A stretch of 32,000 nt of DNA from Nitratidesulfovibrio vulgaris str. Hildenborough (GCF_000195755.1 NC_002937.3:1650001-1682000); one strand, 5' to 3'; shown: positions 634-30,965, counted from the first letter of the stretch. Program-made: numbers and translations. The notes: generated from the sequence alone by a model not told the origin.

Positions 634-643
634 CGGCAGACAG

Positions 644-669: not shown

Positions 670-705
670 GTCCGACCCGGAACGGTCTTTACCCGGAGGG
701 ATTCC

Positions 706-4998: not shown

Positions 4999-5324
4999 GG
5001 CACTTTCCGGGTTCGGAGCGCTTTTCTTTTTCCTCATAGGGTACCGGAGTGAGTAATGAAAGAGAGTTGCTGGAAGGGATGCCCCGTGCGGGAACATGTC
5101 TTCGGGCCGCAGAACTGGCTGCGTACACGTAGATGAAAGAAGGCTGCGGGGGTACTGAAGTGCGAATCGAATGCTGGATGCGTGTAAAAGACCGCGAATG
5201 AGCCTTGCTACACACGCGTAAACGACAACGAAGTCGATGCGATGCAGGGAAAGCTACAGGCTCTTGACCAGTATGTGTGGGAACAGAGAGAACCTAGCCC
5301 AATACCGTCATGTTGGCAAGGGGG

Positions 5325-6560: not shown

Positions 6561-6621
6561 GTGCGCATCGGGGCGATAGGGTGGGCTACATGCCGTACCG
6601 GAAATGACCGGCCAACACGGG

Positions 6622-6650
6622 AAAAAGCCGGCTCCGCAAGCGGAGCCGGC
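6622..6650 (-). terminator. Rho-independent terminator after rplY
   Basis: On the - strand GCCGGCTCCGC-TT-GCGGAGCCGGC (6650-6627) forms a GC-rich stem of about 10-11 bp. It is followed by TTTTTC (6626-6621) and lies 25 nt after the rplY stop. Confidence 0.7.
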
Positions 6651-6674
6651 CTGAAGCGGCGGAGAAACGCGGAA

Positions 6675-7247: not shown

Positions 7248-7296
7248 GCTGTTTCTCCTTTACATTCCTGCGGCAAGCGGCCACGGAACGAGATTG

Positions 7297-8235: not shown

Positions 8236-8277
8236 GGTCTGACATCCGGCTAGAGTTGGGGAACTTGCGTTCTGAAA

Positions 8278-8356: not shown

Positions 8357-9217
8357 TCACAAAAGATGCTGATATACCCGTATGCCATGACCCTTCAGCT
8401 GTTCGAAGGCCGCTTCGGCATCTTCACGCCTCCTGAAGAGGGCGAAGACGCTCGCGCCGCTACCGCTCATGAGGGCGGCTGCCGCGCCATGTCGCAACAA
8501 GGCTTCCTTGAGCGACCGCAGCTCCGGGTGAGACGCGAAGACCACCGGTTCGAAGCTGTTATGGAGCCATGACTCGCGGGAGAACGAGTTTCTATCCGCA
8601 ACCCCCCCCGTTGTCAAGCAACCACGCACGCGGAGTTGTTTTTCTTCGGCAGCATCCAGCGCGCCGTAGGCCCATGCCGTGGAGACCTGTACCTGCGGGC
8701 AGGCGAGAAGCAGGGTGAATCCCTTGTACGGCCATGCCACAGGGGTGATGATCTCGCCAATGCCGCTGGCACGGCACGGGACCGCATGGATGAAGAACGG
8801 CACGTCGGCTCCGATGCGGGCCGCCAGTCTGCATAGCGTCTCTCTTCCGAGGGGATGCGGGGCGATGGATTCGAGGTGGTTCAGGATTGCAGCGGCGTTG
8901 GCACTGCCGCCTCCCAGTCCTGCCCCATGCGGAACGCCTTTTCGCAACTCGACGCGAAGAGGCGGGCGGAATCCGGAGGCTTCGGCATAGGCGTCGTAGG
9001 CGCGGGTGACCGTGTTCCGTGTCGGGTCGATGCCCTGAATGGCACACGTCACAGTTATTCCGGGAGCATCGCCAACCGTCACCACCAGTTCGTCGTGCGG
9101 TTCCTCCAGCGGAAGGAAGAGGCTGTCGATTTCGTGATAGCCGTCGTCACGGCGCGACGTGATATGGAGGTCGAGATTGACCTTGCACCCGGAACGGAGC
9201 GTCACCGCGTCGTTCAT
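8357..9217 (-). CDS. ispE: 4-diphosphocytidyl-2-C-methyl-D-erythritol kinase
   Basis: The start at ATG 9217 ([19 protein letters not shown]) overlaps the hslV stop as ATGA, with GGAGA upstream. The GHMP-kinase motif [16 protein letters not shown] is present. The track start at 9268 lies inside hslV. Confidence 0.85.
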
Positions 9218-9759
9218 GCCTGTGTCTCCGCCGATTCGACGGTGAGGTGGTCGTTGGTGAAGACGCATATCTCGCCTGCGATGCGCATGGCTTCACGGGC
9301 GATGGTCTCCGCATCGAGTTGCGTGTGGCGGGCGAGTGCGCGGGCTGCGGCAAGGGCATAGGGGCCGCCGCTACCTATGGCGGCGATGCCGTCATCCGGT
9401 TCGATGACATCCCCGTTGCCCGAGAGCACGAGGATGTGTTCGTTGTCGGCCACAAGCAGCATGGCTTCGAGTCGGCGCAGATACTTGTCCTTGCGCCACG
9501 ACTTGGCCATCTCCACGGCGGCGCGGACAAGGTTGCCCCTGTGTTCTTCAAGCTTGGCCTCGAAATGTTCGAACAGCGTGAAGGCATCGGCCGTGGAACC
9601 CGCAAAGCCTGCGACCACCCGTCCGTTGTAGAGACGGCGCACCTTGCGCGCCGAGTGCTTCATGACGATGCTCTGGCCCATGGTCACCTGACCGTCACCT
9701 GCGATGGTGACACCCTGGGCACCCCGCACTGCGAGAATGGTCGTTCCCTTGAGTTCCAT
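9214..9759 (-). CDS. hslV: ATP-dependent protease subunit HslV
   Basis: 181 aa. [12 protein letters not shown], with the catalytic Thr after processing, then [23 protein letters not shown] and [15 protein letters not shown]. Confidence 0.9.
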
Positions 9760-9806
9760 GAATACTCCCGTATATCGTACGCCTGAAAGGGCGTGATGTC
9801 TGTCCG

Positions 9807-9842
9807 CACCACAAGAGGGCAGGGGGCTGCCCTCTTGTGGTG
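9807..9842 (-). terminator. Perfect 16-bp hairpin separating the M48 protease gene from hslV
   Basis: CACCACAAGAGGGCAG (9807-9822), loop GGGG, CTGCCCTCTTGTGGTG (9827-9842). It is adjacent to the 14-nt palindrome GGGCAGTACTGCCC (9847-9860). No clear U-tract. Confidence 0.45.
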
Positions 9843-9920
9843 TTCTGGGCAGTACTGCCCCATTCAGGGCTATTCCGTGGTGTTCAGTCTCAGTGCCGTG
9901 ACCTTTGAGGGGCGCGTGCT

Positions 9921-11366
9921 CTACCAGAACGCCTTTCTCTCCTGATAGGTGGCGGCGAACCGTTCGAGTTCGGCCATCTCTTCAGGTGTGCGCGCCTGTG
10001 CCCTGGCCTGTTCCTCGAATGATTCGGTCTTGTGCTTGTCGTTGCTGTACAGCGAACTGTAGGCAAGGTGGAGGTACGCCTTGAAAGGTTGCCCGGAAGC
10101 ACCCAGCACCCGCCCGTAGTAGTAGTGCACCTCGGCATCTTCGGGCAGTCGGCGAAGCACCTCGTCGAAATACTGGTACGACTTCTGGGGCTGCCCCGAA
10201 TCGGCAAGAAGCCGGGCATAGAAGAAGAGTGCCATGTAGTCGTCGGGGTTCATGAGCGTGGCGCGTTGCAGCATGGCTGCGGCCCGCCCCTTGTCACCCT
10301 TGGTGTAGTGGAACCTGCCGGCCTCGCGCCATATGAGCTGGTCTTTCGGGCTGCACTGCAATGCCTTGTCGAAGGCGGCAGTCGCTTCGGCGACCCTGTT
10401 CTGACGTGAAAAGAGTATGGCCTTGCCGAGTTGCGCGAGGCAATCCCCGGCGGGGGCATCGGCGAAAAGCCGTTCCGAGACCGCGGGGTCTCCATAGCGG
10501 GCCCTGCAAATGGTGCGCACCCTGAGGAACCGTGCGTCGTCATTGGGACGCGACCGGATATCTGCCGGAAGTGCGGCGATGCGCGCAGAAAGCGAGTTGA
10601 TGCGCTCGTTCACGGCCGGGTGGGTGCTCAGGTATGAGGGGATGTCGGTACCCATGGCCCATTGCTTCTTGCGAATCTTCTCGAAGGCGCCGACCATGCC
10701 TTCAGGACGGAAACCGGCGGCGATGAGATAGCGCAGGCCGATTTCGTCTGCCTCGGTTTCGTCCACACGGCTGTAGTTGAGCATGGCCGACTGCCCGGCG
10801 GCGATGGAACCCGCCATGGCCGCGCCCTTGCCCGACCCGCCGCCCAGAAACGCTCCGGCGAGTGCCCCCGCCATCGACAGGATGCTGGTGGTCTGCATCT
10901 TTTCGATGCGGCCCGCGATGTGCCGTTGCGTTGCGTGGGCGAGTTCATGGGCTAGCACTCCCGCCACCTCTGCTTCGTGGTCCATCTGCATGACAAGACC
11001 GGTATGGACGAAGATGAACCCGCCGGGGCTGGCGAAGGCGTTCAGCGAATTGTGCAGCAGGACATTGGTCTTGAAGTCGAAGGGCTGCGGCGGTGCCTGT
11101 TCAAGAAGGCGTGCAACGATGTCCTGAACGTAGACTTTGACTTCCGGGTCTTCGACCAGCGGCATCCGGGACTTGATGAGGACATCGAACTTCCTGCCGA
11201 GTTCCACTTCATCCTTGATGGTGAAACCGCCAAGCCCAAGAAACGCCCACGCCGGGGCAACCCCTTGAATGGTGAGCGCAAGTGCCAGCACAAAGGCCAG
11301 AATGCCCCGCGCACCGCGCCAGAAGGCGCAGCGGCGGGGCGTTTCGTTGCGAAGAAGTGTCGTCAT
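9921..11366 (-). CDS. Periplasmic M48 zinc metalloprotease with C-terminal TPR domain (BepA/YfgC-like)
   Basis: I chose the start at ATG 11366 ([12 protein letters not shown]...), which gives a signal peptide ending [14 protein letters not shown] is the HExxH zinc motif. The C-terminal half is TPR-like ([29 protein letters not shown]). The track start at 11549 lies inside cysS. Confidence 0.8.
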
Positions 11367-11371
11367 GGGCG

Positions 11372-12829
11372 TTACAGGACGTCCCAGACCGCTCCGGAAG
11401 GGGTGTCGCGCACTTCTATGCCAAGGGCGGCGAGTTCGTCGCGTATGGCATCGGCACGGGCGAAATCCTTCGCGGCACGGACGGACTTGCGTTCTTCCAG
11501 CAGGGCGTCGACCTTGGTCGTGTCGATGCCCTTGCGCCGGATGCGGCATTCCTTCAAATCACTCAGGAAGGCTTCGGGTTCACGCCCGAATACCCCGAGG
11601 ACCTTCATCCATTTTGCGACCAGACCATCCAGACGTTCGAGCAGGGCAAGGGTTTCTGCGCTCTTGCGAAGATTCTTGTCTTCAAGCAGGCGGTTCACCA
11701 GTCTGATGGTGCCGAACACGTGACCGAGGGCCGCAGCCGTGTTGAGGTCGTCTTCAAGCGCTTCGTCGAAGGCACGGTCGAGCGTGTCGAACTCTGCCGT
11801 CACGTCGGCAGGCAGAGGCGTGGCACTCCATTTGGAACGGCTGCGTTCGGTGCGGGCGAGCGAAAGGGCCTCGTAGATGCGCTTGAGGCTCTTTTCGGCC
11901 TCGTCCATGCTGTCGAAGGTGAAGTCGATGGGGCTGCGGTAGTGCTTGGTGAGCAGGAAGAAGCGCAGCACTTCCGGGAGATAGCCTTCGAGGATGTCAC
12001 GTATGGTCTTGAAGTTGCCGAGCGACTTGGACATCTTCTCCGCATCGACCTGCACGAAGCCATTGTGCATCCAGTAACGCACGAAAGGCTTGTCCAGCGC
12101 GGCTTCCGTTTGTGCTATCTCGTTCTCGTGGTGCGGGAAGATGAGGTCCTGCCCGCCGCCATGGATGTCCAGCGGCAGGGGCATGTGCTTTTCGCTCATG
12201 GCCGAGCATTCGATGTGCCAGCCCGGGCGTCCTTCGCCCCACGGGCTAGTCCAGCTCGGTTCGCCGGGTTTTGCAGCTTTCCACAATGCGAAATCAAGCG
12301 GGTCTTCCTTTTCCTCGCCGGGGGCGACGCGGGCGCCTGAACGCATGTCGTCGATGTCGCGTCCGGAGAGCTTGCCGTACTCGGGGAAGGAACGGACGCG
12401 GAAATAGACGTCGCCGGAAGGGGTGGCATAGGCCTTGCCCTTGGCGATGAGCTTTTCGCACAGCGCGATCATTTCGAGGATGTGGCCGGTAGCCTTGGGT
12501 TCGATGTCGGCGCGCAGCACGTTGAGGCGGTCCATGTCCTCATAGAAGGTGTCGATGTACTTCTCGGCGACCTGCTGGCTGGTGAGTCCCTCTTCATTGG
12601 CACGCTTGATGATCTTGTCGTCGACGTCGGTGAAGTTGCGGGCGAACGTCACATCAAGTCCGGTATGCCGCAGGTAGCGCACCAGCACGTCGAACACGAC
12701 GGCTGAACGGGCATGACCGATGTGGCAGAGGTCATAGGCGGTGATGCCGCACACGTACATGTTGACCTTGCCGGGTACGGCGGGCGTGAAAAGCTCTTTG
12801 CGGCGCGAGAGCGAGTTGTAGATCTGCAT
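11372..12829 (-). CDS. cysS: Cysteine--tRNA ligase
   Basis: Start at ATG 12829 with GGAGA RBS. Contains [14 protein letters not shown], the HIGH motif CHIGHARS and the KMSKS motif. The track start at 12946 runs into rpiB. Confidence 0.92.
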
Positions 12830-12845
12830 GGCGTCTCCGGAAAAA

Positions 12846-13289
12846 CTAGCGGCAACCGTTGAGGTCGAAAAGGTCGATGCGGCGCTGGTGGCGCCCGCCT
12901 TCGAAGTCGGTGTCAAGGAAGAGGCGTGCCAGTTCAAGAGCCACACCGGGCCCTGTCACGCGTTCGCCAAGACAGAGGACATTGGCGTTGTTGTGCTGGC
13001 GCGTGGCGCGGGCGTGGAATTCGCAGGTGCAGAGTGCCGCGCGGATGCCGGGGATGCGGTTGGCAGCCATCGACATGCCGATGCCCGTGCCACAGATGAG
13101 GATGCCAAGGGCCTCTTCGGCGAGAACACGGTCGCAGACTTTCTGGGCGTAGTGCGGGTAGTCGCAGCTGACGGCGCTTTCAGGGCCGAGGTCTTCGACG
13201 TCGTGTCCTGCGTTGCGAAGGCTGTCGACGATGCTCTGCTTGAGGGCGAAACCCGCATGGTCCGAACCGACGAATACTTTGCGTGCCAT
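12846..13289 (-). CDS. rpiB: Ribose-5-phosphate isomerase B
   Basis: 147 aa. VGSDHAGFALK and ILICGTGIGMSMAANRIPGIRAALC are typical of the RpiB/LacAB family. Confidence 0.9.
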   Translation of the reverse strand: MARKVFVGSDHAGFALKQSIVDSLRNAGHDVEDLGPESAVSCDYPHYAQKVCDRVLAEEALGILICGTGIGMSMAANRIPGIRAALCTCEFHARATRQHNNANVLCLGERVTGPGVALELARLFLDTDFEGGRHQRRIDLFDLNGCR

Positions 13290-13302: not shown

Positions 13303-13671
13303 TTAAGCCTGTACGGTTTCGTTGCCGTTTCCGAAGCGCTCGCGCAGGCGCGTCACATGACGCTCTCGCGCGGCTTCGCGCATGGTGGCGAAGCGTTCGG
13401 TCTCGTCATGCAGAAAGGTTATACGCTTTCTGATGGCGTCAAGGGTCGATGCGTCGGCATCTTCAAGCAGTGCCCTGCCGAGAGATGCCTCCTCCTGAGT
13501 GATGCGCTTGCGCAGCTGGCGGGTCTCGATGGCGTGCAACACGCCGCCCGCCATCCAGCCGAGTTCCGCACCGAGAACGTTGAGCCCGGTGCGCATGACG
13601 TTGAAGACTGCCGTGCAGCGCGAAACCGAAGACGCGGAAGAGGGAGAAGACATGGTGGACTCCATGATCAT
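13303..13671 (-). CDS. Small hypothetical protein (one hydrophobic/amphipathic segment followed by a charged coiled-coil-like tail)
   Basis: 122 aa. Third codon positions are G/C-rich, as in neighbouring genes. The start overlaps the stop of the upstream lipoprotein gene as ATGA. I recognise no family. Confidence 0.55.
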   Translation of the reverse strand: MIMESTMSSPSSASSVSRCTAVFNVMRTGLNVLGAELGWMAGGVLHAIETRQLRKRITQEEASLGRALLEDADASTLDAIRKRITFLHDETERFATMREAARERHVTRLRERFGNGNETVQA

Positions 13672-14507
13672 TTGCGGCCGAGAGAGCGCAACGGCAGTAG
13701 CGTGGTGCCCTCGGGCAGTTCAAGGCCGAGCTGTTCAGGGCTGAAGGGAGTGTCGAGCCTGACGCGTTCCTTGACGAGTATGATGGCGTTGTAGCCCTTG
13801 CCGTGCTGGAAGACCAGCTTGCGGGGCATGGGCGTTGCCGTAGCGTCCGCGTCCTCGGCATATGAGACATCGAGATTCCAGCCGTCAGCCGTGCCATCGG
13901 TCCAGCGCACCGGAAGCCCGGCTTCGGAGATGACCAGCGAGCCGCCGGGGCGCTTGCCTTCGAGAGTGTAGGCGATTCCCATGCCGGGAACAAGGGTGGC
14001 CTCTCCTGCCGACCGCAGGCCGAAGACGCTGCCGAAGCGACCATCGAGCATGGCAGTGAGGTCGCTCACCGAGAAGGGTACGGGAACACCGAACGAGAAG
14101 AGGGCCTTGCCGTCGCCGTAATGATGGTATGCCTTCTGTTCGTTGGGCGAATAGGCGAGGAAGGTGTCGTCGGTTTCGCGTATCTTCGCGACCGTTGCCC
14201 CTATTCCGGCCATGATGTCGAGGCGCAACGGGGCCTTGCCATTGCCCCATATGAGGGCAATGACACGGTGTCCGTCATCGCCAGCGTTGTATCGAAGGCT
14301 GGTTTCGAGCCTGAACGGCCCTGTATCGCGTTCTGTCGCGGCACTGTAGGCCTTGTAGGCGTTCCAGACCGTCGCCGCCGTATCGGCCGGGGCCAAGGCC
14401 CCTCTGGGGGCTTTCGAGGCGCAGCCTCCCGCAAGGGCGACGCATACCACCGCCCACAGCATCATGAGGGCGGGGCGGATTCTGTTTGCAGAGGATGTGT
14501 GTATCAT
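13668..14507 (-). CDS. Lipoprotein with LolB-like sequence pattern
   Basis: Start at ATG 14507 (MIHTSSANRIRPALMMLWAVVCVALAGGCASK), giving a signal peptide with a lipobox Cys. It overlaps the upstream stop as ATGA. The segment LRLDIMAGIGATVAKIRETDDTFLAYSPNEQKAYH...FGVPVPFSVSDLTAMLDG parallels E. coli LolB [31 protein letters not shown]...TGMPIPLNSLRQWILG. Confidence 0.6.
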   Translation of the reverse strand: MIHTSSANRIRPALMMLWAVVCVALAGGCASKAPRGALAPADTAATVWNAYKAYSAATERDTGPFRLETSLRYNAGDDGHRVIALIWGNGKAPLRLDIMAGIGATVAKIRETDDTFLAYSPNEQKAYHHYGDGKALFSFGVPVPFSVSDLTAMLDGRFGSVFGLRSAGEATLVPGMGIAYTLEGKRPGGSLVISEAGLPVRWTDGTADGWNLDVSYAEDADATATPMPRKLVFQHGKGYNAIILVKERVRLDTPFSPEQLGLELPEGTTLLPLRSLGRK

Positions 14508-16192
14508 TTTTTGTCGAGTTTGGCCTTGATGGCGTCGGGATTCTGCGGGTTCATGGACAGGGCCTTGCGGTAGGCGCGCCGCGCCGTGTTCTTCTGCCCC
14601 ATGGCCGTGGCGATGTCTCCGTAATGCTCCCAGATGATGGGGTCGGGCGCATTGAGTTCGATGGCGCGGCTGATGGCCTTCCATGCTTCGGGAATGCGGC
14701 CCGCCTTGAAGTAGGCCCATGCCAGCGAGTCGAGGATGAAGGGGTTGTCGGGCGAAAGGGTATTGGCGCGTTCGAGAAGGGAGACGGCCCGGGTAAGGTC
14801 GCGCTCCTGTTCCGCAAGGGTGTAGCCCACATAGTTCAGGGCCTGTGCATGGTTGGGAGAGGCCTTGATGACCTCTTCCATGGCGGCGAAGGCAGCGTCC
14901 TTCGCACCCCTGTCGTCGAGGATGAGGGCGCGCATGAACAGCAGGCCGCTGTCATCGGGCCAGCGGTCGGCGGCCTTATCGATGACCCGGAGTGCCTCTT
15001 CGGAGCGCCCCATGTTGACGAGAAGTTGCGCCTCCATCTCGCGGAAGTCCCTTTGCTCGGGGAATGTCTCACGGCCTTCGCGGGCTGTCCGCAGCGCCGC
15101 TTCGAGGTCGCCCTTCTCATAGAGCAGCTGGCTACGCAGGCGCAGGGCGCGGTCGTAGTACTTATTGGTGGGGCGCACTTCTAGCAGCCACGACAGGGTG
15201 GCGTCCGTATCGCGCTGTCCCTCGTAGGCCAGCACGGCGAGGAAGAAGTAGACTTCTTCCGGAGCCCCGGGCGAATCCTTCACGGCCAGAAGCAGACCTT
15301 CGGCCTGTTCGAAGAACCTGTCATCGAGGAATAGCGTTGCGGCCGTGAGCATGAAGCCGAAGGTCTCCGGCCCTTGCCGTGCCAGCTCATAGGCCTTGAC
15401 GGGGTTGTTGAGCTTGATGTTGATGGCCACCAGTCGTAGCCAGACGTCCTGATTGCCCTCGTCGAGAGCCAGAATCTGTTCGTAGATCTTTTCCGCTTCG
15501 ACGTAGTTCTTGCGAAGCTCATACACATAGGCCAGTTCGGCCCATGCCTCGAGGAAGTCGGGAGATGCCTTGACCGCCTTGCGGAGTTGCGCCGTGGCCT
15601 CTGTGAGGCGGTTGAGCCCCATGAGGGCGCGCGCGTGGTAGTACCGCAGGAGCGACGTGCGCGAGGTCTCCCCGATGGACAGGATGAGCTTGTCGGCCTC
15701 TTCGTAACGGCGGGTCTTCACAAGAAGTTGTGCCAGTTCCTGCCGTGCCTCGTCGTCCTTGGGGTGCTTGGCGTTATAGGCGCGCAGCAGGGCGATGGCC
15801 TCGTCGTTGCGGTCGAGGTCGAGGTAGCTTTCGGCGAGAAGCAGGGTCAGGCCGAGGTCGTCCGGGTGGGCTGCGACGCCGCGCGTGAGGATGTCACGGG
15901 CGAGGTCGGGCTCCTTGCGTGACAGCAGGAAGCTGCCGGAGTCGTTGTAGACACGGGCCGTGGGAGACAGCCGGATGAGGTTCTCGATGGCTTCGATGGC
16001 GTCGCGGGTGTTGTCGCTGCGGGCCGCCTGATCAAGCATGAGGTAGTAGAAGGTCGTTTCGGCACCATCGGAGAGGTTCCACTGTACGGCCTCTGGCGAG
16101 GCCGTTTCGACAGCGGGGCGATGGGCGCATCCACCTGCGATGAGGGGCAGGGCGGTGACGACGGCGGCAACGGAACGGCGGAAGGATGGCAT
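14504..16192 (-). CDS. TPR-repeat lipoprotein
   Basis: 562 aa. The N-terminus MPSFRRSVAAVVTALPLIAGGCAH carries a signal peptide and lipobox. Most of the length consists of many 34-residue TPR-like repeats (e.g. AWAELAYVYELRKNYVEAEKIYEQILALDEGN, ALNYVGYTLAEQ, AWAYFKAGRIPEAWKAISRAIELNAPD). Confidence 0.8.
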   Translation of the reverse strand: MPSFRRSVAAVVTALPLIAGGCAHRPAVETASPEAVQWNLSDGAETTFYYLMLDQAARSDNTRDAIEAIENLIRLSPTARVYNDSGSFLLSRKEPDLARDILTRGVAAHPDDLGLTLLLAESYLDLDRNDEAIALLRAYNAKHPKDDEARQELAQLLVKTRRYEEADKLILSIGETSRTSLLRYYHARALMGLNRLTEATAQLRKAVKASPDFLEAWAELAYVYELRKNYVEAEKIYEQILALDEGNQDVWLRLVAINIKLNNPVKAYELARQGPETFGFMLTAATLFLDDRFFEQAEGLLLAVKDSPGAPEEVYFFLAVLAYEGQRDTDATLSWLLEVRPTNKYYDRALRLRSQLLYEKGDLEAALRTAREGRETFPEQRDFREMEAQLLVNMGRSEEALRVIDKAADRWPDDSGLLFMRALILDDRGAKDAAFAAMEEVIKASPNHAQALNYVGYTLAEQERDLTRAVSLLERANTLSPDNPFILDSLAWAYFKAGRIPEAWKAISRAIELNAPDPIIWEHYGDIATAMGQKNTARRAYRKALSMNPQNPDAIKAKLDKK

Positions 16193-22297: not shown

Positions 22298-23668
22298 GTG
22301 GCCAAGGTCCGAGAGACGTACGTTTGCAGTGCATGTGGTGCCAATACCCCGCAATGGCGAGGGCAATGTCCCACCTGCAAGGCATGGAACACTCTTGACG
22401 CAGTGACCGTCGCGCGTGAAACGCGCAGCGGCGTGCGGCGACAGGGGGCACCTGATTCGGTGCGCCCACGGCCTTTGCGCGACGTGAGCGATGAGGGCGG
22501 AAGCCCCTTCGGTACCGGGCTTGAAGCCCTCGACCGTGTGCTCGGTTCCGGCCTTGTGCCGGGTGCCGCCATCCTTTTCGGTGGTGAGCCGGGGATAGGC
22601 AAGTCGACGCTTCTTCTGCAGGTCGCCGGGGCTGTGGCAGCCAGCGGGCGCGATGTGCTCTACCTGTCAGGTGAGGAGTCGCTCACACAGCTCAAGGGAC
22701 GTGCAGAACGTCTCGGGGTGCTGCACGAAAGGCTTCTCGCCGTGGCGACATCGCGTGTCGAGGACGTCTTCTCCGTTCTTGAGAGTGGCACCCCGCCAGC
22801 CCTTCTCGTACTCGACTCGGTGCAGACGCTCACATCCGACCTCGCCGAGGGACTGCCCGGCAACGTCAGTCAGGTGCGCGCCGTCGCCACCGAGGTCGTC
22901 GACCGTTGCAAGCGCGCCGGGACAGCCGTCCTGCTGGTCGGGCATGTGACCAAGGATGGCAATCTCGCCGGCCCCCGTCTGCTGGAGCATATGGTCGATA
23001 CCGTCGTTTCTCTGGAAGGTGACCGACGCCAGATGTTCCGCCTGTTGCGGGTGCTCAAGAACCGCTTCGGCCCCAATCAGGAGTTGCTCGTCTTCCAGAT
23101 GGCACAGCGGGGGCTCGAGGTCGTTGAAGACCCCTCCACGTTCTTCCTTGGAGCACGCGACCCGGCCCTCAGTGGTACCGCCGTGGTGATGGCGGTTGAC
23201 GGGCAACGCCCCTTCGCCGTCGAGGTGCAGGCACTTGTCACCCGCAGCTATCTCGCCATACCCCGCCGTACCGGACTCGGCTTCGACGTCAACAGGCTGC
23301 ACCTGCTGCTTGCCGTGCTTGAGAAGCGGCTTCGCCTCAACTTCGGGCAGGTCGATATCTATGCCAAAATCGGCGGGGGGATGCGGCTTCAAGACCCCGG
23401 CATGGACCTCGCGCTTGTGGCTGCCGTGCTTTCATCCTTCTATGATGTTGCGCTTCCTGAACGCGCTGTCCTGTGGGGGGAAGTCGACCTCAACGGGCAG
23501 GTGCGCCCCGTCGCGGCGCACGACATCCGCCTCGGGCAGGCTGCCCGCCTTGGCTATGGCCCTGTTCTTCATCCCGGCGAGGGGAGGGGGGCCGTGCCGA
23601 CCGTGGTCGAACTTCAGGCAAGGCTCTTCGGCAAGTCTGGCGCCCCCCGGCATAATCCCTCCGAGTAG
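22298..23668 (+). CDS. radA: DNA repair protein RadA/Sms
   Basis: GTG start. Contains the zinc finger CSACGANTPQWRGQCPTCKAWNT, Walker A GGEPGIGKSTLLLQ, the KNRFG motif (LKNRFGP) and a Lon-protease-like C-terminal domain. Confidence 0.92.
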   Translation: MAKVRETYVCSACGANTPQWRGQCPTCKAWNTLDAVTVARETRSGVRRQGAPDSVRPRPLRDVSDEGGSPFGTGLEALDRVLGSGLVPGAAILFGGEPGIGKSTLLLQVAGAVAASGRDVLYLSGEESLTQLKGRAERLGVLHERLLAVATSRVEDVFSVLESGTPPALLVLDSVQTLTSDLAEGLPGNVSQVRAVATEVVDRCKRAGTAVLLVGHVTKDGNLAGPRLLEHMVDTVVSLEGDRRQMFRLLRVLKNRFGPNQELLVFQMAQRGLEVVEDPSTFFLGARDPALSGTAVVMAVDGQRPFAVEVQALVTRSYLAIPRRTGLGFDVNRLHLLLAVLEKRLRLNFGQVDIYAKIGGGMRLQDPGMDLALVAAVLSSFYDVALPERAVLWGEVDLNGQVRPVAAHDIRLGQAARLGYGPVLHPGEGRGAVPTVVELQARLFGKSGAPRHNPSE

Positions 23669-23984: not shown

Positions 23985-25727
23985 ATGAGCGCAGTCGTAG
24001 AAATCGCCCGCGATGTCAGCACGCATCTTGTCGAAATCGGCAAGGGGCTTGCACGTGTGGTGCATGAACAGGAACAGACCTTCCTCGACCTTGGAGATGC
24101 CGTTCAGCGGATTGCCATGCAGGTTGGCGGCATCGGCGACGAGGCACGAGACCTTGTCAGGGTCACGTCGGGCGAGGCCATGTCACACATCCTCGAAGCG
24201 CTGGAGGGCGAGTTCGGTCGCATGGCCGAATTGTGCGCCACCGGTGTTCATGGTGGAGAACAGGCCCTGCTCGCCCGTACACGGGAACTCGTCCAGAACC
24301 TTGGCGTCTCTGTCCGTGAGTACGCACGCATCGTGCGGACCCTTCAGATGCTCGGCATCGCCACCCGCATAGAGAGTGCGCGTCTCGGTGCCGACGGACG
24401 TGGGTTCAGTACTCTGGCGGATGACGTCGAGAAGCTTGCGGGAAAGATCATCGAGTATTCGTCGAGCCTGCTTGAACAGGGGCGCGCACTCGATGTCACC
24501 ATCGCCGAGGCGGAGGGGCGGAGTCTTGAGATGGGGGCGAAACAGGATTCGTGTTCGCTTGCCGTTTCAGTAGGGCTGCTCGACGGACTCGACAACCTCA
24601 AACGCACGATGGCTTCGAGCAGGGCGTCGTCGTTGCAGGTCGAGGGATTGCTGGCAGACATCAACAAATCCATGCAAGGCCTCGTGGGGTCGCTCCAGTT
24701 TCACGACATCGTCCGGCAGCAGGTCGAGCATGTCGTCGAAGCCGTCGATGATGTCCTTGCCGGGCTGGCAAGGAACGCTGCCGCAGAATCCACTTCTGGT
24801 GCCGAGGAACTGGCTTTCGCCGCAGAGGTGTGCACCCTGCAGGAGTCCCAGACCCGTGCGGCTTCAGAGAGTCTCTCCACGGCTGTCGCCTCGTTGCGTT
24901 CCGAAATGCGCACCATCGCCAGCAGCGTCCGGCAGGTCGTTCTGGATGCCGGCGGAGGCTCGGGCGAGGGTGCGTCGGAATCGACAGCAGCAAAGGTCCT
25001 GGACGCCCTAGAGAACGAAGTCCGGGCAGCCGCGACCAGTATGCGCGAACTTGCCGTGCAGGGCGAAGACATGGGTCGCACCATGGAGATGGTCGCGTCC
25101 ACGGTTTCGGACATGACGGCGTTTCTCGCCGACATCGAGGATGTCGGATCGGAAATCGAGCTCATCGCCCTCAATGCGAGCATCAGTGCGGCGCATACGG
25201 GTGACAAGGGGAAGGCGCTCGGTGTGCTCGCAACGTCCATCCAGCGTCTTTCGCAGGATGCGGGGACACAGACGGTCGCCCTTGCAGACCTGCTGAGGAG
25301 CATCGACACCGCAGCCGGGGAACTGAAGGCTCTGGCCCTGTCCTACCTTGACATGAGCAGGGTTTCTGCCGTCAAGGAGGAACTCGAGCGGCTGACGCTC
25401 GCCTTGCGCGAAGCAAGTGGCGAGGCTGAACGCCACTTCAGGGGCGTTGCCAGCAGTTGCGATGTGCTCGCGCGTGACATGGAAAGACGCGTGCAGGACA
25501 TCGCAGTGGACAGGCTCGTCTGCGCTGCGCTCGACAAGGGGGCTGAACGGTTCGCCGTGGTGGCCGCCAAGGCGCGGCGAGGGGTTCCGGCCGGGACGCA
25601 GGTGCCGCGCGAGCGCATGAAGCATATGCATCAACGTTACACCATGCAGCAGGAACGCGTGCTGCATGGCAGGCATGTCGGCGAGTCGACCGACGATGGC
25701 ATGGGCGACAACATCGAACTGTTCTGA
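23985..25727 (+). CDS. Soluble chemoreceptor-like protein with two MCP signalling (hairpin-tip) modules
   Basis: Start at ATG 23985 (MSAVVEIARD), 5 nt after GGGGGG. The track start at 23880 adds an Arg/Cys-rich extension. There is no TM-length hydrophobic stretch. Tip-like copy 1 is RIESARLGADGRGFSTLADDVEKLA. Tip-like copy 2 is LIALNASISAAHTGDKGKALGVLATSIQRLSQ. The protein lies directly upstream of cheY-cheA-cheR-cheB. Confidence 0.75.
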   Translation: MSAVVEIARDVSTHLVEIGKGLARVVHEQEQTFLDLGDAVQRIAMQVGGIGDEARDLVRVTSGEAMSHILEALEGEFGRMAELCATGVHGGEQALLARTRELVQNLGVSVREYARIVRTLQMLGIATRIESARLGADGRGFSTLADDVEKLAGKIIEYSSSLLEQGRALDVTIAEAEGRSLEMGAKQDSCSLAVSVGLLDGLDNLKRTMASSRASSLQVEGLLADINKSMQGLVGSLQFHDIVRQQVEHVVEAVDDVLAGLARNAAAESTSGAEELAFAAEVCTLQESQTRAASESLSTAVASLRSEMRTIASSVRQVVLDAGGGSGEGASESTAAKVLDALENEVRAAATSMRELAVQGEDMGRTMEMVASTVSDMTAFLADIEDVGSEIELIALNASISAAHTGDKGKALGVLATSIQRLSQDAGTQTVALADLLRSIDTAAGELKALALSYLDMSRVSAVKEELERLTLALREASGEAERHFRGVASSCDVLARDMERRVQDIAVDRLVCAALDKGAERFAVVAAKARRGVPAGTQVPRERMKHMHQRYTMQQERVLHGRHVGESTDDGMGDNIELF

Positions 25728-25753: not shown

Positions 25754-26116
25754 ATGAGCAAACTGATCATGTCCGTCGATGATTCTGCTAGTATCCGTCA
25801 GATGGTGGGCTTCACACTCCGGAATGCCGGTTACGAGGTCATAGAGGCCTCGGACGGCAAGGACGCGCTGGGCAAGCTCTCCGGCCCGGTGAAGATGGTC
25901 ATCACCGACCTGAATATGCCCAACATGGATGGTATCGAGCTCATAAGGCGCATACGGGCCACGCCTGCCTACAAGTTCATTCCCGTGGTCATGCTCACCA
26001 CCGAATCCCAGGCGGCACGTAAACAGGAAGGCAAGGCAGCCGGGGCCACGGGGTGGATAGTCAAGCCGTTCAAACCCGAGCAGTTGCTGGCTGTCGTGCA
26101 GAAGCTGCTAGGCTAG
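25754..26116 (+). CDS. cheY: Chemotaxis response regulator CheY
   Basis: 120 aa single REC domain. It has SVDDS, the phospho-acceptor context MVITDLNMPNMDG, and MLTTE...IVKPF. Confidence 0.9.
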   Translation: MSKLIMSVDDSASIRQMVGFTLRNAGYEVIEASDGKDALGKLSGPVKMVITDLNMPNMDGIELIRRIRATPAYKFIPVVMLTTESQAARKQEGKAAGATGWIVKPFKPEQLLAVVQKLLG

Positions 26117-26183: not shown

Positions 26184-28310
26184 ATGATCGTGCAGGATGA
26201 ACTCAACCGTCAGGCGTTCGTCGAAGAGGCGCAAGACCTGCTGGCCGAACTTGAGACGGCGTTGCTTGAAATCGAGGAACGTCCCGAAGACAGGTCGCTC
26301 GTCGACCGCATTTTCCGGGCCATGCACACGATCAAGGGGTCGGGGGCGATGTTCGGCTTCGACGACATCGCGTCCTTCACCCATGATGTGGAGAGTGTCT
26401 TCGACAAGGTTCGCAATGGTGAGATGGAGTTGTCTCCGGAACTGCTCGATCTTACGCTGAAGTCGCGTGACCATATCGCCTACCTTCTGCAGTGTGCCAC
26501 GAAAGGCCTCGCCGTCGACGTCTCCATGTCCGCCGACCTCACGCAGGCTCTCCGGGCCCTGCTGCCGGGTGATGACCACGCGTCCGCGTCCCCTGCCGAT
26601 GAGATGCCGTCGTCCGGTGAGGTCGAAGGTCCCCGGCGGACCTACCGTGTGCGCTTCAAGCCGCATCCGCAACTCTTCCTCTCGGGCACGAACCCTCTGG
26701 GGCTGGTGCGCGAGATACAGGACCTGGGGCGTTCGAAGCTCTTCGTCCATTTCGGTGACGTGCCAGCCCTCGATGAACTCGACCCGGAGCAATGCCATGT
26801 GTGGTGGGATGTGTTGCTCACCACCGATAGTGATGAAGCCGCCATCCGTGACATCTTCCTCTTTGTCGAGGACGATGCGACCGTTGATGTGCGGCTCATC
26901 GACGAGGCGAACCTGCTTGAACAGGACGGTGCCTACAAGCGGCTTGGCGAGATTCTGCTTGAACGGGGCGATGTGGCGACCGAAGACCTGCGGCGGGTGC
27001 TGGAGGAGCAGCGTCCCATTGGCGAACTGCTCGCCGAGGCAGGCATCGTCACCCCTGATCAGGTCGCTTCCGCGCTGGCGGAGCAGAAGACGGTGCGCGA
27101 ACTGCGCCGCAGCCGCACCGAAGACGGGGACAAGCCCGCCGAAAAGGCGGGAGACGCCGGGGCGAGCATTCGCGTCTCTGCTGCCAAGCTCGACTATCTA
27201 GTCGATCTCGTAGGTGAACTTGTCATCGTGCAGTCCCAGATCGCGCGTATGGCGCACGAGCATCCCGCCCCCGGCATGTTGAGCCTCGTCGAAGCCCTCG
27301 AAAGGCTCAGCGACGACCTGCGCGACACGACGCTGGGTGTGCGCATGCTGCCCATAGGAACCACGTTCAGCCGTTTCAGACGGCTGGTGCGCGACCTCGC
27401 CGGAGAATTGGGCAAGAGCGTCGAACTCGTCACGCTCGGAGGCGAGACGGAACTGGACAAGACCGTCATAGAGCGACTGGGCGACCCGCTGGTGCATTGC
27501 CTGCGCAACAGCCTCGACCATGGTGTGGAATCGCCGGAACGCCGTCTGGCAGCCGGGAAGAGCGCCACGGGGCGCATCACGCTGGCAGCCGCTCACGCTG
27601 GCGGCGAGGTGCTGGTGACCATTTCGGATGATGGTGCGGGCATCGATGCCGAAAGAATCTATCAGGCTGCCCTGCGCAAGGGCATCATTGCCCCCGAGGT
27701 CGACCTTTCCACCCGGCAGAAGCTGGAACTCATCTTCGCGGCAGGCTTCTCCACTGCGGAGAAGGTGACCAGCGTCTCGGGGCGCGGCGTCGGCATGGAT
27801 GTGGTGAAGCGAGCCATCGAGAGCCTGCGCGGGCGTATCGAACTGGAGAGCACGCCGGGCAAGGGGACAGTCATCACCATACGGCTGCCGCTCACGCTTG
27901 CCATCATCGACGGGCTTCAGGTTCGCGTGGGGGACGAGTCCTACATCATTCCGTTGCCCCATGTGGAAGAGTGCGCCGAACACAATACGCCCGACCATGT
28001 CGACGGGCGACAGCGCATCATCAACCTGCGGGGTGACATCGTGCCGTTCATACGCTTGCGCGATGTCTTCCGGGTTCCGGGTGTCTCTCCGGGCATGGAA
28101 CAGCTTGTGGTGGTGAACGCGCTCGGAAGCCGATTCGGGCTGGTTGTCGACTGCGTCATCGGAGAGCACCAGACGGTCATCAAGAGTCTTGGCAAGGTCT
28201 ACAAGGACATTCCGGGCATTTCCGGCGCGACCATTCAGGGGGACGGCAGCATGGCACTGATCATCGACGTGCCGGGACTCGTCCATACCGCAGCGCTTGA
28301 GGCCGCATGA
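26184..28310 (+). CDS. cheA: Chemotaxis histidine kinase CheA (Hpt, atypical middle region, dimerisation, HATPase, CheW-like P5)
   Basis: 708 aa. P1 is FRAMHTIKGSGAMFG (His codon 26325-26327). P3 is IRVSAAKLDYLVDLVGELVI. P4 carries DPLVHCLRNSLDHG, DDGAGID and GRGVGMDVV. P5 is LAIIDGLQVRVGDESYIIPL...ALIIDV. Residues about 130-310 are not a canonical P2. Confidence 0.92.
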   Translation: MIVQDELNRQAFVEEAQDLLAELETALLEIEERPEDRSLVDRIFRAMHTIKGSGAMFGFDDIASFTHDVESVFDKVRNGEMELSPELLDLTLKSRDHIAYLLQCATKGLAVDVSMSADLTQALRALLPGDDHASASPADEMPSSGEVEGPRRTYRVRFKPHPQLFLSGTNPLGLVREIQDLGRSKLFVHFGDVPALDELDPEQCHVWWDVLLTTDSDEAAIRDIFLFVEDDATVDVRLIDEANLLEQDGAYKRLGEILLERGDVATEDLRRVLEEQRPIGELLAEAGIVTPDQVASALAEQKTVRELRRSRTEDGDKPAEKAGDAGASIRVSAAKLDYLVDLVGELVIVQSQIARMAHEHPAPGMLSLVEALERLSDDLRDTTLGVRMLPIGTTFSRFRRLVRDLAGELGKSVELVTLGGETELDKTVIERLGDPLVHCLRNSLDHGVESPERRLAAGKSATGRITLAAAHAGGEVLVTISDDGAGIDAERIYQAALRKGIIAPEVDLSTRQKLELIFAAGFSTAEKVTSVSGRGVGMDVVKRAIESLRGRIELESTPGKGTVITIRLPLTLAIIDGLQVRVGDESYIIPLPHVEECAEHNTPDHVDGRQRIINLRGDIVPFIRLRDVFRVPGVSPGMEQLVVVNALGSRFGLVVDCVIGEHQTVIKSLGKVYKDIPGISGATIQGDGSMALIIDVPGLVHTAALEAA

Positions 28311-29209
28311 TGGGACAGGGGGTATCGGAAGGTATGATACAGGGGCCGCCGGAAAGGGGAGGGGGCGATGGCGCGCCTTTCAGACCGAAGAGCATGACGC
28401 CCAAGGTGTTCGAGCGTATGAGTCGCTACGTGTATGAACAGGTCGGCATCAAGCTCACCCCTGCCAAGCGCATCATGCTCGAGGCGCGTTTGCAGAAGCG
28501 CCTTCGTACTCTCGGGTTCGATTCCTATGAGCAGTACGCCGAGTACCTCTTCACTGCGCGAGGGCAGCAGGAGGAGTTGCAGCAGTTCATCGATGTGGTG
28601 ACCACGAACACCACCGAGTTCTTCCGCGAGGGCAGGCACTTCGAGTTGCTGGCGCAGAAGGTGCTGCCCCGCTGGCGTTCGCAGTTCGGTACCTCGCGTG
28701 CCATGCAGATATGGAGCGCGGGCTGCTCGTTCGGCATGGAACCCTATACACTGGCCATGGTGCTTGCTGACTTTGCCGAGCGCAATTCGGGGTTCGTCTT
28801 CTCTGTGCTTGCCACCGACATCTCCGCCCGGGCGCTGCAACATGCCCAGCGTGGCATCTATGACGAAGAGCGGGTGGAGAGTATCCCGGAATCGTTCCGC
28901 AAGCGTTTTCTGCTGCGCAGCCGAGAAAGGGCCAGAAAACTGGTACGCATCGCCCCGGAGATACGGCATCTGGTCACCTTCCAGCGGCTGAACTTCATGG
29001 AGGACTTCTCGTTCAGAACCCCCATGGACGTCATCTTCTGCCGCAACGTGATCATCTATTTCGACAAGCCGACGCAAGAGCGGTTGTTCTCGCGTTTCTG
29101 CGAAAGCCTGCGACCGGGGGGGTATCTTTTCATCGGTCATTCCGAGAGCCTGACGGGCATGTCACTGCCCCTCGAAGCCCAGGCTCCCACCGTATACAGG
29201 AAGGTGTAG
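28307..29209 (+). CDS. cheR: Chemotaxis protein methyltransferase CheR
   Basis: The ATG overlaps the cheA stop as ATGA. Contains [10 protein letters not shown], the SAM-binding [29 protein letters not shown] and [10 protein letters not shown]. An alternative internal start lies at 28394. Confidence 0.9.
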
Positions 29210-29211
29210 CC

Positions 29212-30285
29212 GTGGCGCGCCCTTGCCGTGTCCTCATCGTCGACGATTCCGCCCTTGTCAGGCAGACTCTGGCCGACCTCCTTTCCGCAGACCCCGGCAT
29301 CGAGGTGGTGGGCACCGCCTCCGACCCATTCGTGGCTGCCAAGCGCATGGAGGCGGTGGTGCCCGACGTCATCCTGCTCGATATCGAAATGCCACGGATG
29401 GACGGGCTTACATTCCTGCGAAAGATCATGACCCAGCATCCCCTACCGGTGGTCATCTGCTCTTCGGTGACGGAGCAGGGGGCCGAGGCCACGTTCAAGG
29501 CCATGGAATACGGCGCGGTGGAGGTCATCACCAAACCTCGCCTCGGCACCAAGAGGTTTCTGGAGGAGTCGAGCATCCGCATCTGTGATGCCGTGAAGGC
29601 CGCGGCGCGGGCACGCCTGCACAGGCTTGGGCACCGTACGCGCGATGTCGCCCCCAAACTGACGGCAGATGCCATGTTGCCGGGCCCCACCAACTTCACG
29701 CGGGTGCAGACCACTGAGAAGGTCGTGGTCGTAGGCGCTTCGACAGGTGGCACGGAGGCCCTTCAAGTGTTCCTTGAAGCCATGCCGCCGGATGCGCCTC
29801 CCATAGCCATCGTCCAGCATATGCCGGAACACTTCACCGGAGCCTTTTCGCGCCGCCTTGACGGCATCTGCCGTATCCGGGTGCGCGAAGCGGAGGACGG
29901 AGACATCATGGCGCGGGGTCAGGCACTCATCGCCCCCGGTAGCAGCCACATGTTGCTCAAGCGCAACGGCTCGCGCTATACGGTGGAGGTCAAGGACGGC
30001 CCCCTCGTGAGACGGCACCGTCCCTCTGTCGATGTGCTGTTCCGGTCGGCTGCGCGCTATGCCGGGGCCAATGCGGTCGCCGCCATCCTCACGGGGATGG
30101 GCGATGACGGCGCGGCGGGCATGAAGGAACTGCACGACATGGGGGCCCATACCATCGCGCAGGATGAGGCGACGTGCATCGTCTTTGGCATGCCCCATGA
30201 GGCCATCAGGCTGGGTGGCGTCGACAGGGTGCTGCCCCTTGACGCCATCGCACCCGCCGTGCTCAAGGCCTGCGCGGGTTCATAG
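29212..30285 (+). CDS. cheB: Chemotaxis response regulator protein-glutamate methylesterase CheB
   Basis: GTG start 2 nt after the cheR stop, with AGGAAGG upstream. The REC domain reads [11 protein letters not shown] and [12 protein letters not shown]. The esterase domain has [15 protein letters not shown] and TGMGDDGA. Confidence 0.92.
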
Positions 30286-30305: not shown

Positions 30306-30965
30306 ATGATGAGTGACGAACCTAAGGGCGCGATACTGCAGCGCGACAAGCTCACCTACGCCATCGTACCCCGCACCCCGTGCGGTCTTCTCACCCCCGA
30401 CGTGCTTGATGCCGTGTCGCGGGTCTGCAGGAAGTACGAAGTGCCGATCATCAAGATCACATCCGGGCAGCGTCTGGCCCTTGTCGGCATGAAGAAGGAA
30501 GCCGTCGAACCCATGTGGGAAGAGCTTCGCCTTGACGTCGGACGTGCCGTAGAACTTTGCGTGCACTATGTGCAGGCGTGCCCCGGTACGGCGGTCTGCC
30601 GGTTCGGCCTTCAGGATTCCCTCGGCATCGGCGTGGCCATAGAAGAGGAATATGTCGGGCACGACTTCCCAGCCAAGGTCAAGTTCGGCATTTCGGGCTG
30701 TCCCTTCTGCTGTGGCGAAAGCTACCTGCGAGATGTAGGTCTCGTGGGCACCAAGAAGGGCTGGACGCTCATCGTGGGTGGCAATTCCGGCGGGCATCCG
30801 CGCATCGGCGATGTGCTTGCAGAAGAGCTTTCCACTGATGAGGCCAAGGGGCTGATACGTAAGTTCATGGAGTTCTATCGCGATAACTCGGGTAAACGGC
30901 TGCGTGTCTCCAAGTTCGTCGAGAAGACGGGCATCGAGGCCATACGGCAGGCGGTACTCGGTTAG
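30306..30965 (+). CDS. sir: Small assimilatory-type sulfite reductase (siroheme/[4Fe-4S] nitrite-sulfite reductase fold)
   Basis: 219 aa. The cluster/siroheme Cys motifs are CPGTAVC (C-x5-C) and CPFCC (C-x3-C). The size and sequence type match the low-molecular-weight assimilatory sulfite reductase described from D. vulgaris Hildenborough. AGGAG lies at 30298-30302. The second ATG at 30309 is an equally possible start. Confidence 0.85.
   Translation: MMSDEPKGAILQRDKLTYAIVPRTPCGLLTPDVLDAVSRVCRKYEVPIIKITSGQRLALVGMKKEAVEPMWEELRLDVGRAVELCVHYVQACPGTAVCRFGLQDSLGIGVAIEEEYVGHDFPAKVKFGISGCPFCCGESYLRDVGLVGTKKGWTLIVGGNSGGHPRIGDVLAEELSTDEAKGLIRKFMEFYRDNSGKRLRVSKFVEKTGIEAIRQAVLG

Follow-up and report, generated by a model that had tools for sequence, protein, structure and literature searches.

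A soluble chemoreceptor-like protein with two tandem signaling hairpins, encoded beside a chemotaxis operon of Nitratidesulfovibrio vulgaris Hildenborough

Introduction

To our knowledge, DosM is the only receptor described with two signaling tips, and it defines F9 chemosensory arrays. This one known example has the shape of an extended rod (PMC7534058). A Geobacter receptor class, "40+24H", might also consist of double-domain receptors, which is not confirmed (PMC3543383). The present study analyzes a gene in a 32,000-nucleotide stretch of the genome of Nitratidesulfovibrio vulgaris str. Hildenborough (NC_002937.3:1650001-1682000), hereafter the window, in which all positions are counted from the first letter. 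The gene lies on the plus strand, starts with an ATG at 23985, ends with a TGA at 25725-25727 and encodes a protein of 580 amino acids (aa), here called DT. Like DosM of Vibrio cholerae (VC1403), DT joins two signaling hairpins of the methyl-accepting chemotaxis protein (MCP) type in a single soluble chain that lacks a sensor domain, and a sequence-only reading of this DNA had accordingly called it DosM-like. Double-tipped receptors are already known from DosM, but the DT family is a separate, widespread and undescribed lineage in which the architecture was reached independently. Below we give the evidence for the two hairpins and for their origin, compare the locus with F9 clusters and with CheZ, and weigh what the protein may do.

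Results

Two MCP tips in one soluble chain

As judged from profile matches and composition, DT is a soluble, almost wholly helical chemoreceptor-like protein with two MCP hairpins in tandem. No membrane helix is expected since the highest Kyte-Doolittle mean over a 19-residue window is only 0.94; proline is absent from aa 1-534, and no sensor domain was recognized, all of which agrees with the earlier description of a roughly 580-aa product having neither a transmembrane helix nor a recognizable sensor domain. The whole protein matches the Pfam MCPsignal model (PF00015) with 48.6 bits, above the gathering score of 34.6, and all 73 family members tested match the same model. Each half also matches when searched alone, the N-terminal half at aa 121-154 (28.6 bits, E 1.5e-6, profile positions 50-83) and the C-terminal half at aa 361-443 (30.2 bits, E 5e-7), while a 117-aa fragment spanning the second tip reaches 37.3 bits (E 3e-9). 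The two tip matches are real and far beyond chance, and the count of independent matches, which the sequence-only reading had suggested as a check on its claim that the MCP core is present twice in one chain, comes to two. The peptides quoted there for the two copies are exact, LGIATRIESARLGADGRGFSTLADDVEKLAGKI being aa 123-155 (nucleotides (nt) 24351-24449) and LIALNASISAAHTGDKGKALGVLATSIQRLSQDA being aa 393-426 (nt 25161-25262), and the end positions given for the copies are correct, but the start positions lay 36 nt upstream of each quoted peptide.

Tip 1 is of the canonical type and, as had been stated, keeps the conserved E...R..G..G.GF core, with E130, R133, G135, G138, G140 and F141; we take E130, R133 and F141 to be the equivalents of E385, R388 and F396 of Tsr. 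Tip 2 retains N397, G406 and G409 and has lysine or serine at 401, H404 and L412 at the remaining core positions, where K401, H404 and L412 presumably stand in place of the same three Tsr residues. Among 240 family members, which are the basis of all conservation counts given here, E130, F141 and N397 are present in 240/240 and both G406 and G409 in 239/240, with G135 and G140 conserved at approximately 90% and G138 at 73%. Mean column conservation is 0.75 for tip 2 and 0.70 for tip 1. Since tip 2 is the best-conserved block of the family, it is a specialized rather than a decayed tip, and as it also outscores tip 1 on the Pfam model, the view of the second copy as a degenerate tip is not upheld.

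Origin from a single-hairpin module

A tblastn search of plasmids returned two distant relatives of DT in Methylosinus. One is a 575-aa "hypothetical protein" that ends a cheA-cheW-mcp-mcp-cheW-cheR-cheB cluster and has both tips, LQIGDNTRQRVEHV, LYTMDGERSVH and the terminus ...DDILFA; the other has a single hairpin with a canonical tip, followed by SIQFQDIVRQQVEQ, DYVTEEQRNVH and ...PRIELF. A search with the single-hairpin receptor led to a family of proteins of approximately 420-450 aa (A4 hereafter, with A2 denoting the profile of the double-hairpin DT family), and 103 of 120 single-hairpin matches had the F[QH]D...Q motif and 89 an ELF-type terminal tetrapeptide. A4 is the last gene, "M", of the F9 clusters of Burkholderia multivorans (P0431, locus L088) and Aquabacterium (P0426, L089). 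The order in these two clusters is DosM (637 or 641 aa), CheW3 (514 or 542 aa), CheB, a HEAT protein, CheR, CheY, CheA, a gene of approximately 80 aa, CheY and M, matching the published F9 pattern [DosM W3 B. R Y A. Y M] (PMC9321776). The small gene between cheA and the second cheY (L088:9316-9561, L089:9349-9582) has no Pfam match and no counterpart in the window. From gene order, not sequence, the position of A4 would correspond to V. cholerae VC1394. Precomputed annotation lists PF28017 on the single-hairpin relatives P0368, P0372, P0373, P0439, P0474 and P0482.

Both halves of DT align with A4 when profiles are compared in hhalign. The N-terminal half did so over 261 columns with a probability of 99.6% and E 9.3e-24, tip on tip and FHD on FQD, and the C-terminal half (aa 271-568) with a probability of 99.6% and E 5.4e-25, in which tip 2 falls on the canonical tip of A4 and YTM on YVM. 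Because both halves are homologous to the A4 module, DT is a tandem duplication of an F9 "M"-type module, and because the halves are only weakly similar to each other (E 0.047), the duplication is old. The module consists of a canonical tip, then QF[QH]DI.RQ, then Y(T/V)M..(E/Q)R..H and a C-terminal (I/V)ELF, all three motifs being shared by the F9 "M" receptor and DT. By this comparison the canonical kinase-control tip and an intact D-x-x-x-Q persist in half 1, whereas half 2 bears the variant but conserved tip, the tail and a second F[QH]D motif that has decayed; within the decayed copy, column 509 is histidine in 64% of members. An earlier model in which a second hairpin had been inserted between FHD and YTM was replaced by tandem duplication after both halves had been aligned to A4.

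The genes of A4 and DT are alike in adjoining a cheY near cheA. DT nevertheless has two hairpins and 580 aa where A4 has one hairpin, and is a duplicated derivative rather than a plain A4 member; the Burkholderia A4 member has hydrophobic N-terminal segments whereas DT is soluble, and the F9 clusters of A4 also encode DosM, CheW3, a HEAT protein and a second CheY, all four of which are missing from the window operon. Among solved structures, the best matches for both halves were the Thermotoga maritima MCP signaling domains Tm14 and TM1143 (PDB 3G67 and 2CH7). The Tm14 hairpin (chain residues 16-205) was aligned by positions 50-236 of the family profile (E 7e-15) and separately by positions 317-505 (E 2e-14). 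Tm14 is a soluble receptor, like DT, but Tm14 and TM1143 have a single hairpin with a canonical tip and neither a DxxxQ block nor an ELF tail.

Covariation within and between the hairpins

Covariation in the 240-member alignment was calculated as gap-free mutual information (MI) with average product correction and summed along antidiagonals, which replaced a mean-field direct coupling analysis (120 and 240 sequences) that was dominated by gap-run artefacts. Antidiagonal MI peaked at centers 137 and 405, and the family alignment had no peak at or near centers 87 or 238. The strongest register was that of hairpin 1, with covarying pairs (84,190) and (12,262) that both sum to 274, and hairpin 2 had pairs (273,536), (278,542), (346,467) and (390,426), in a register of approximately 810-820. 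Positions 84 and 190 are cysteine together in 92/240 members (Cys84 in 110 and Cys190 in 113), with pairs such as L/Q in members lacking the cysteines; facing each other across hairpin 1, Cys84 and Cys190 could serve as an input site based on a disulfide, a metal or redox chemistry. Cys283 is cysteine in 51% of members. The top covarying pair of the whole protein joins the two tips, aa 138 in tip 1 (24396-24398) with aa 399 in tip 2 (25179-25181), and its states are G/S in 147, D/R in 15, A/Q in 11, D/I in 9 and E/R in 4 members. This charge complementarity hints that tips 1 and 2 touch, within or between molecules, but the pair may also reflect phylogenetic coupling.

Distribution and conserved blocks

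A protein identical to DT is in a public collection (P0001), and sources label its relatives merely "methyl-accepting chemotaxis protein" or "hypothetical protein"; no description of the DT family or of MCP-CheZ hybrids was found in the literature searched. A profile search of 1.84 billion representatives gave 1,942 clusters (50% identity) at E<=1e-30, of which the best 150 matches were almost all full-length, and family members have approximately 570-640 aa. At least 542 GTDB species representatives carry a relative, including Nitratidesulfovibrio, Oleidesulfovibrio, Halodesulfovibrio, Solidesulfovibrio, Desulfonatronum, Geobacter and Trichlorobacter as well as metagenome-assembled genomes (MAGs) of Acidobacteriota and Nitrospirota.

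Five blocks are near-invariant in the family, namely aa 28-37, tip 1, aa 236-253, tip 2 and, taken together, aa 551-561 with the C-terminal DN(V/I)ELF. In the fifth block Y552 is unchanged in all members and T553, M554, E557, R558 and H561 are conserved at 95-99%. The N-terminal motif lies 99 residues before tip 1 in most members, and the spacing from tip 1 to DxxxQ is exactly 109 residues in 181/181 members, while the distance from FHD to tip 2 varies from 149 to 216 residues and the length of the C-terminal linker is also variable.

The DxxxQ block and its resemblance to CheZ

The block at aa 236-253 is an extra motif, QFHDIVRQQVEH, in which D241, I242 and Q245 are unchanged in 240/240 members and H240, R244, E248 and H249 are conserved at 98-99%. 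Locally the sequences are QFHDIVRQ in DT, QFQDITRQ in relatives and DFQDLTGQ in CheZ, for which the E. coli protein, verified as identical in sequence to PDB 1KMI chain Z, was the reference. The family's D and Q were in register with D143 and Q147 of CheZ (profile positions 129 and 133) in all profile comparisons and in the members inspected. The hhalign matches themselves were weak: the double-hairpin family gave E 0.28, the single-hairpin family gave E 0.0074, and the comparison with a shallow CheZ alignment gave E 0.0031. The CheZ profile stayed shallow because every homologue retrieved was a close enterobacterial CheZ (those used are at least 78% identical). The Pfam CheZ model (PF04344, gathering score 30.7) gave no match to DT at E<=10, and no Pfam model matched the isolated motif or the N-terminal and C-terminal fragments of DT. 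Among 73 family members, 17 scored 10-14 bits (best E 0.0063), which is sub-threshold, and single-hairpin relatives scored 25.4-29.8 bits (E 7e-7 to 1.5e-5), also below the gathering score. As unrelated coiled-coil families reach similar E-values, the resemblance is suggestive rather than established. Three further features are common to CheZ and DT: a long helix belonging to a hairpin or four-helix bundle carries the D-x-x-x-Q, an acidic flexible linker is followed by a short hydrophobic C-terminal peptide, and the gene lies beside a cheY. The hydrophobic spacing of the DT peptide is unlike that of the CheY-binding peptides of CheZ and FliM.

The motif was also compared with the H-box of HisKA_3, H-D-x-x-x-Q as in DesK and NarX, and this candidate was rejected after hhalign against DesK left the motif unaligned. 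Residue 240 is glutamine in the single-hairpin family and glycine in Methylosinus C49. Since His240 is not universal and the DesK H-box did not align, a phospho-histidine role is unlikely.

The C-terminal tail

DT does end in DNIELF, as had been noticed from the sequence, and the tail is strongly conserved, with N576 in 96%, L579 in 98% and F580 in 99.6% of members; the A4 family likewise ends in IELF. That reading had found DNIELF reminiscent of the NWETF tether but no match to it, as the Trp is absent. CheR/CheB tethers fall into xWxxF or x(F/Y)xx(F/Y) pentapeptide classes (PMC2577667). Position 2 of the pentapeptide N(V/I)ELF is valine or isoleucine in 237/240 members, not aromatic, and the tail falls outside these classes; the adjacent CheR also lacks Gly188, Gly190 and Gly194. 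At the Salmonella pocket positions Q182, R187, G188, G190, G194 and R197, the residues of this CheR are K, R, S, E, K and R, and only R187 and R197 are kept. In some members DN(V/I)ELF is repeated 2-6 times behind acidic linkers, and this repetition suggests a multivalent short linear binding motif. The Desulfonatronum-type members L034 and L036 have (V/I)ELF 4-6 times with short acidic linkers between. By analogy with the linker-plus-peptide design of CheZ, the acidic linker and ELF tail may be a tether for a receiver domain, that of CheY or CheB. Q245-Q246 is the sole conserved EQ-EQ pair in the family; it was considered as a methylation site and rejected, as it never varies to glutamate and lacks small flanking residues.

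The operon

DT lies downstream of radA (22298-23668) and is co-inherited with cheY, cheA, (cheW), cheR and cheB immediately downstream of it, which in the window follow at short spacing on the same strand. Sequence beyond the receptor gene was compared in 84 loci, and almost without exception DT is directly 5′ of cheY and/or cheA, with cheY as the next gene in most. Locus variants are radA-DT-Y-A-R-B, the Desulfovibrio type that occurs in the window and also in Nitratidesulfovibrio and Oleidesulfovibrio and is an operon without cheW; DT-A-W-R-B, the Solidesulfovibrio type without cheY; DT-Y-A-W-R-B; and a Geobacter type with three receiver genes upstream. Where present, in Solidesulfovibrio and others, cheW sits between cheA and cheR, with a match of approximately 150 aa. 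For the window CheB and CheR, the Methylosinus C49 cluster supplied the nearest counterparts (60% and 42%). The stop of cheA and the start of cheR overlap by 4 nt (28307-28310), as is commonly seen with translational coupling. The D. vulgaris cheA1 cluster reportedly has the same Y-A-R-B order, and its mutant is said to have no known phenotype.

Table 1. Predicted features of DT and of the chemotaxis genes downstream (positions in the window)
Feature	Position (nt)	Strand	Basis
Open reading frame for the 580-aa soluble double-hairpin chemoreceptor-like protein (DT)	23985..25727	+	open reading frame list, translation, MCPsignal 48.6 bits
Hairpin 1 (aa 1-264): N-arm, tip 1, C-arm	23985..24776	+	hhalign to A4, Tm14 alignment, covariation register i+j=274
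N-terminal motif (R)E..FL.LG, aa 28-37 (E30, F33, L34, G37)	24066..24095	+	invariant or nearly so in 240 members
Cys84	24234..24236	+	covaries with Cys190; 84+190=274
Tip 1 (aa 115-152), RIVRTLQMLGIATRIESARLGADGRGFSTLADDVEKLA, canonical type	24327..24440	+	MCPsignal 28.6 bits; E130, F141 invariant 240/240
Cys190	24552..24554	+	partner of Cys84
S-L-QFHDIVRQQVEHV block (aa 236-253), invariant D241-x-x-x-Q245	24690..24743	+	240-member conservation; aligns with A4 QFQDItRQ
Variable linker joining the hairpins (aa 265-269)	24777..24791	+	non-helical in AlphaFold2 model; family indels here
Hairpin 2 (aa 270-534), Gly/Ser loop at aa 322-333	24792..25586	+	hhalign A2 vs A4, AlphaFold2, covariation
Tip 2 (aa 384-426), IEDVGSEIELIALNASISAAHTGDKGKALGVLATSIQRLSQDA, conserved variant tip	25134..25262	+	MCPsignal 30-37 bits, E 5e-7 to 3e-9
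Decayed second F[QH]D copy (aa 506-517; consensus keeps F-H at 508-509)	25500..25535	+	aligns with A4 QFQDItRQ
RYTMQQERVLH (aa 551-561), family motif RYTM..ER..H	25635..25667	+	Y552 240/240; aligns with A4 YVM..QR..H
C-terminal DNIELF, family motif DN[VI]ELF-COOH	25707..25724	+	240-member conservation
cheY (120 aa)	25754..26116	+	Response_reg domain, E 4e-26
cheA (708 aa; Hpt, dimerization, HATPase, CheW-like domains)	26184..28310	+	domain matches
cheR (300 aa)	28307..29209	+	without Gly188/190/194 pentapeptide-pocket signature
cheB (357 aa)	29212..30285	+	domain match

In one relative, a 6.3-Mb Desulfovibrionaceae MAG, a 692-aa receptor with PAS, MCPsignal and HNOB domains is encoded between radA and DT (L003:7878-9956), and it is a candidate sensing partner for an array. 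On the same strand after cheB, the window has a gene (30306-30965) for a 219-aa protein with a NIR_SIR ferredoxin-like half domain and a 4Fe-4S domain, which is outside the conserved che cluster of relatives. The rest of the window (124-3293 and 8357-12946) is housekeeping-like, with a ferritin-like protein, 2-oxoacid:ferredoxin oxidoreductase subunits, a GHMP kinase, an M48 peptidase with TPR repeats and cysteinyl-tRNA synthetase. Open reading frames at 3961-5052, 6024-7400, 7189-8253 and 13668-14720 have no Pfam match and may not be genes.

Discussion

The explanation that best accounts for these observations overall, and which we hold to be somewhat probable, is that DT is a duplicated double-hairpin receptor or scaffold of the pathway encoded downstream, likely forming a rod of approximately 37 nm that bridges two baseplates. 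DT would then be the dedicated receptor or scaffold of the operon's pathway. Its homodimer would have a pair of four-helix bundles, most likely arranged end to end, and each of the two unlike tips would insert into its own CheA-containing baseplate within a cytoplasmic array free of membrane, a role functionally analogous to that of DosM with an independent origin. The length is an estimate from the approximately 251 helical residues between the tips, and is compatible with the 35 nm baseplate spacing in V. cholerae. As DT has no recognizable sensor domain, signal input would probably come via other cytoplasmic receptors, to which Cys84 and Cys190 could add an input site.

Several observations weigh against this explanation or against parts of it. 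The monomer structure prediction that the sequence-only reading had put forward as a check shows a helix break at the second tip but not at the first. AlphaFold2 (AF2), with input alignments of 20-73 family members from which canonical MCPs were absent, returned an almost entirely helical full-length DT (predicted local distance difference test (pLDDT) 86, predicted template modeling score 0.64) with helices at 334-404 and 406-454 and a break at 405, in tip 2, but by DSSP the helix runs unbroken through tip 1, with a turn at aa 85-90 instead. The N-terminal half modeled alone (pLDDT 84.5) repeats the straight helix at tip 1 and superposes poorly on Tm14 (root-mean-square deviation approximately 14 Å). 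Covariation is compatible with an intrachain hairpin or with antiparallel interchain pairing of the same register, and cannot separate the two. The methylation consensus [ASTG][ASTG]xx[EQ][EQ]xx[ASTG][ASTG] is absent from DT and none is conserved, despite the presence of cheR and cheB. There is no cheW in the operon of this lineage or among the other scanned open reading frames of the window, which bears on how a baseplate would form. The CheA of the window resembles a non-F9, STAS-associated CheA (40% identity from end to end) more closely than it does F9 CheAs, for which the match is 38% and confined to P3-P5. Finally, the linker between the hairpins is variable in length, and the coupling of 138 with 399 fits hairpins lying side by side better than it fits a rod.

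Taken at face value, the AF2 models would give DT a single real hairpin, with the tip-1 sequence embedded in a straight helix at aa 89-270 and the N-terminal 85 residues folded back as a helical input bundle. The two AF2 runs (m941617ebe382 and m6dc6a989ee50) had no break at aa 130-140 and placed a loop at aa 85-90, with pLDDT 81-93 there, and family indels cluster at aa 85-90. This topology is contradicted by the tip-on-tip homology of the N-terminal half with the A4 hairpin, by alignment of both Tm14 arms, and by antidiagonal covariation, which was missing at i+j of approximately 175 and strongest in the register that includes the co-occurring Cys84 and Cys190; moreover, the conserved glycines 135, 138 and 140 would fall inside a helix of approximately 180 residues, and the alignments given to AF2 were small and without canonical MCPs. 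We therefore read tip 1 as a hairpin and consider the single-hairpin topology very improbable. A less remote alternative, though still an unlikely one, is that the two bundles fold back at the linker so that both tips enter one baseplate and nucleate a single-layer membrane-free array, where the pair of hairpins might supply two of the dimers in a single trimer-of-dimers. The non-helical and length-variable linker and the charge-complementary top pair, as if the tips touched, favor this arrangement, as does the presumed retention of complementary subsets of Tsr trimer contacts, namely the equivalents of E385 and R388 in tip 1 and of N381 in tip 2. Against that, the coupling of 138 with 399 could be phylogenetic or could arise between oppositely oriented molecules, and the precedent set by DosM is of an extended rod (PMC7534058). 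The end-to-end rod is the arrangement we prefer for DT.

The proposal that DT is an orthologue of V. cholerae DosM, marking an F9 chemosensory system, has some attractive features. The architecture is indeed alike, with two signaling domains and neither a transmembrane helix nor a sensor domain; the halves of DT are related to a receptor type of F9 clusters, the order DT-Y-A-R-B is collinear with the F9 cluster in reverse (M-Y-.-A-Y-R-.-B-W3-DosM), and a preprint reports F9-type CheA homologues in Desulfovibrionia. It was in family membership, gene order and CheW3 that the DosM-like designation failed. In the DosM of B. multivorans (L088:175-2088), which was the sequence compared, both tips are canonical and the FHD, YTM and ELF motifs are missing, and the DT family profile matched it over hairpin 2 only, at a generic MCP level (E 1.4e-10). 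DosM is found beside a triple CheW in the order DosM-W3-B-.-R-Y-A, whereas the order for DT is DT-Y-A-(W)-R-B, and no triple-CheW (CheW3) gene was seen in the 84 DT loci, where cheW matches have the length given above. Window CheA is nearer to non-F9 CheA, as described, and a survey found F9 in 2/54 Desulfobacterota genomes, those of Caldimicrobium and Thermosulfuriphilus and not Desulfovibrio. Orthology with DosM is largely refuted by these comparisons and we give it hardly any credence.

The DxxxQ face of DT, invariant and at a fixed distance from tip 1, is probably where a receiver domain, that of the adjacent CheY, docks or is dephosphorylated. A bolder reading, which we offer tentatively and consider doubtful, is that the invariant QF(H/Q)DI.RQ face serves the receptor as an inbuilt active site of the CheZ type, so that the DT and F9 "M" families would dephosphorylate the neighboring CheY, with the ELF peptide as CheY tether. 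If true, the site would lie approximately 16 nm (109 residues) from the kinase-binding tip, kinase and phosphatase would share one receptor scaffold, and the two could be switched reciprocally by receptor conformation. The absence of CheZ, CheC and CheX from the clusters examined would then be explained, a function would be assigned to the poorly understood F9 "M" receptor, and the proteins would be a new class of CheY-P phosphatase.

There is also a practical implication, in that AF2 given family-only alignments confidently straightens tip 1, which calls for caution in automated structure-based annotation of long coiled-coil receptors. For the biology of these bacteria, the DT family represents a second route to a double-tipped receptor, by another path, in another operon type and in anaerobes. 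Its hosts, among them Desulfovibrionales, Geobacter, Acidobacteriota and Nitrospirota, are organisms for which cytoplasmic arrays were not described in the literature searched, and the two-tip architecture leads to a testable prediction of such arrays in genetically tractable sulfate reducers. The invariant DxxxQ, common to DT and the F9 "M" receptor, suggests in addition that a phosphatase or a receiver-docking site is embedded in the receptor itself.

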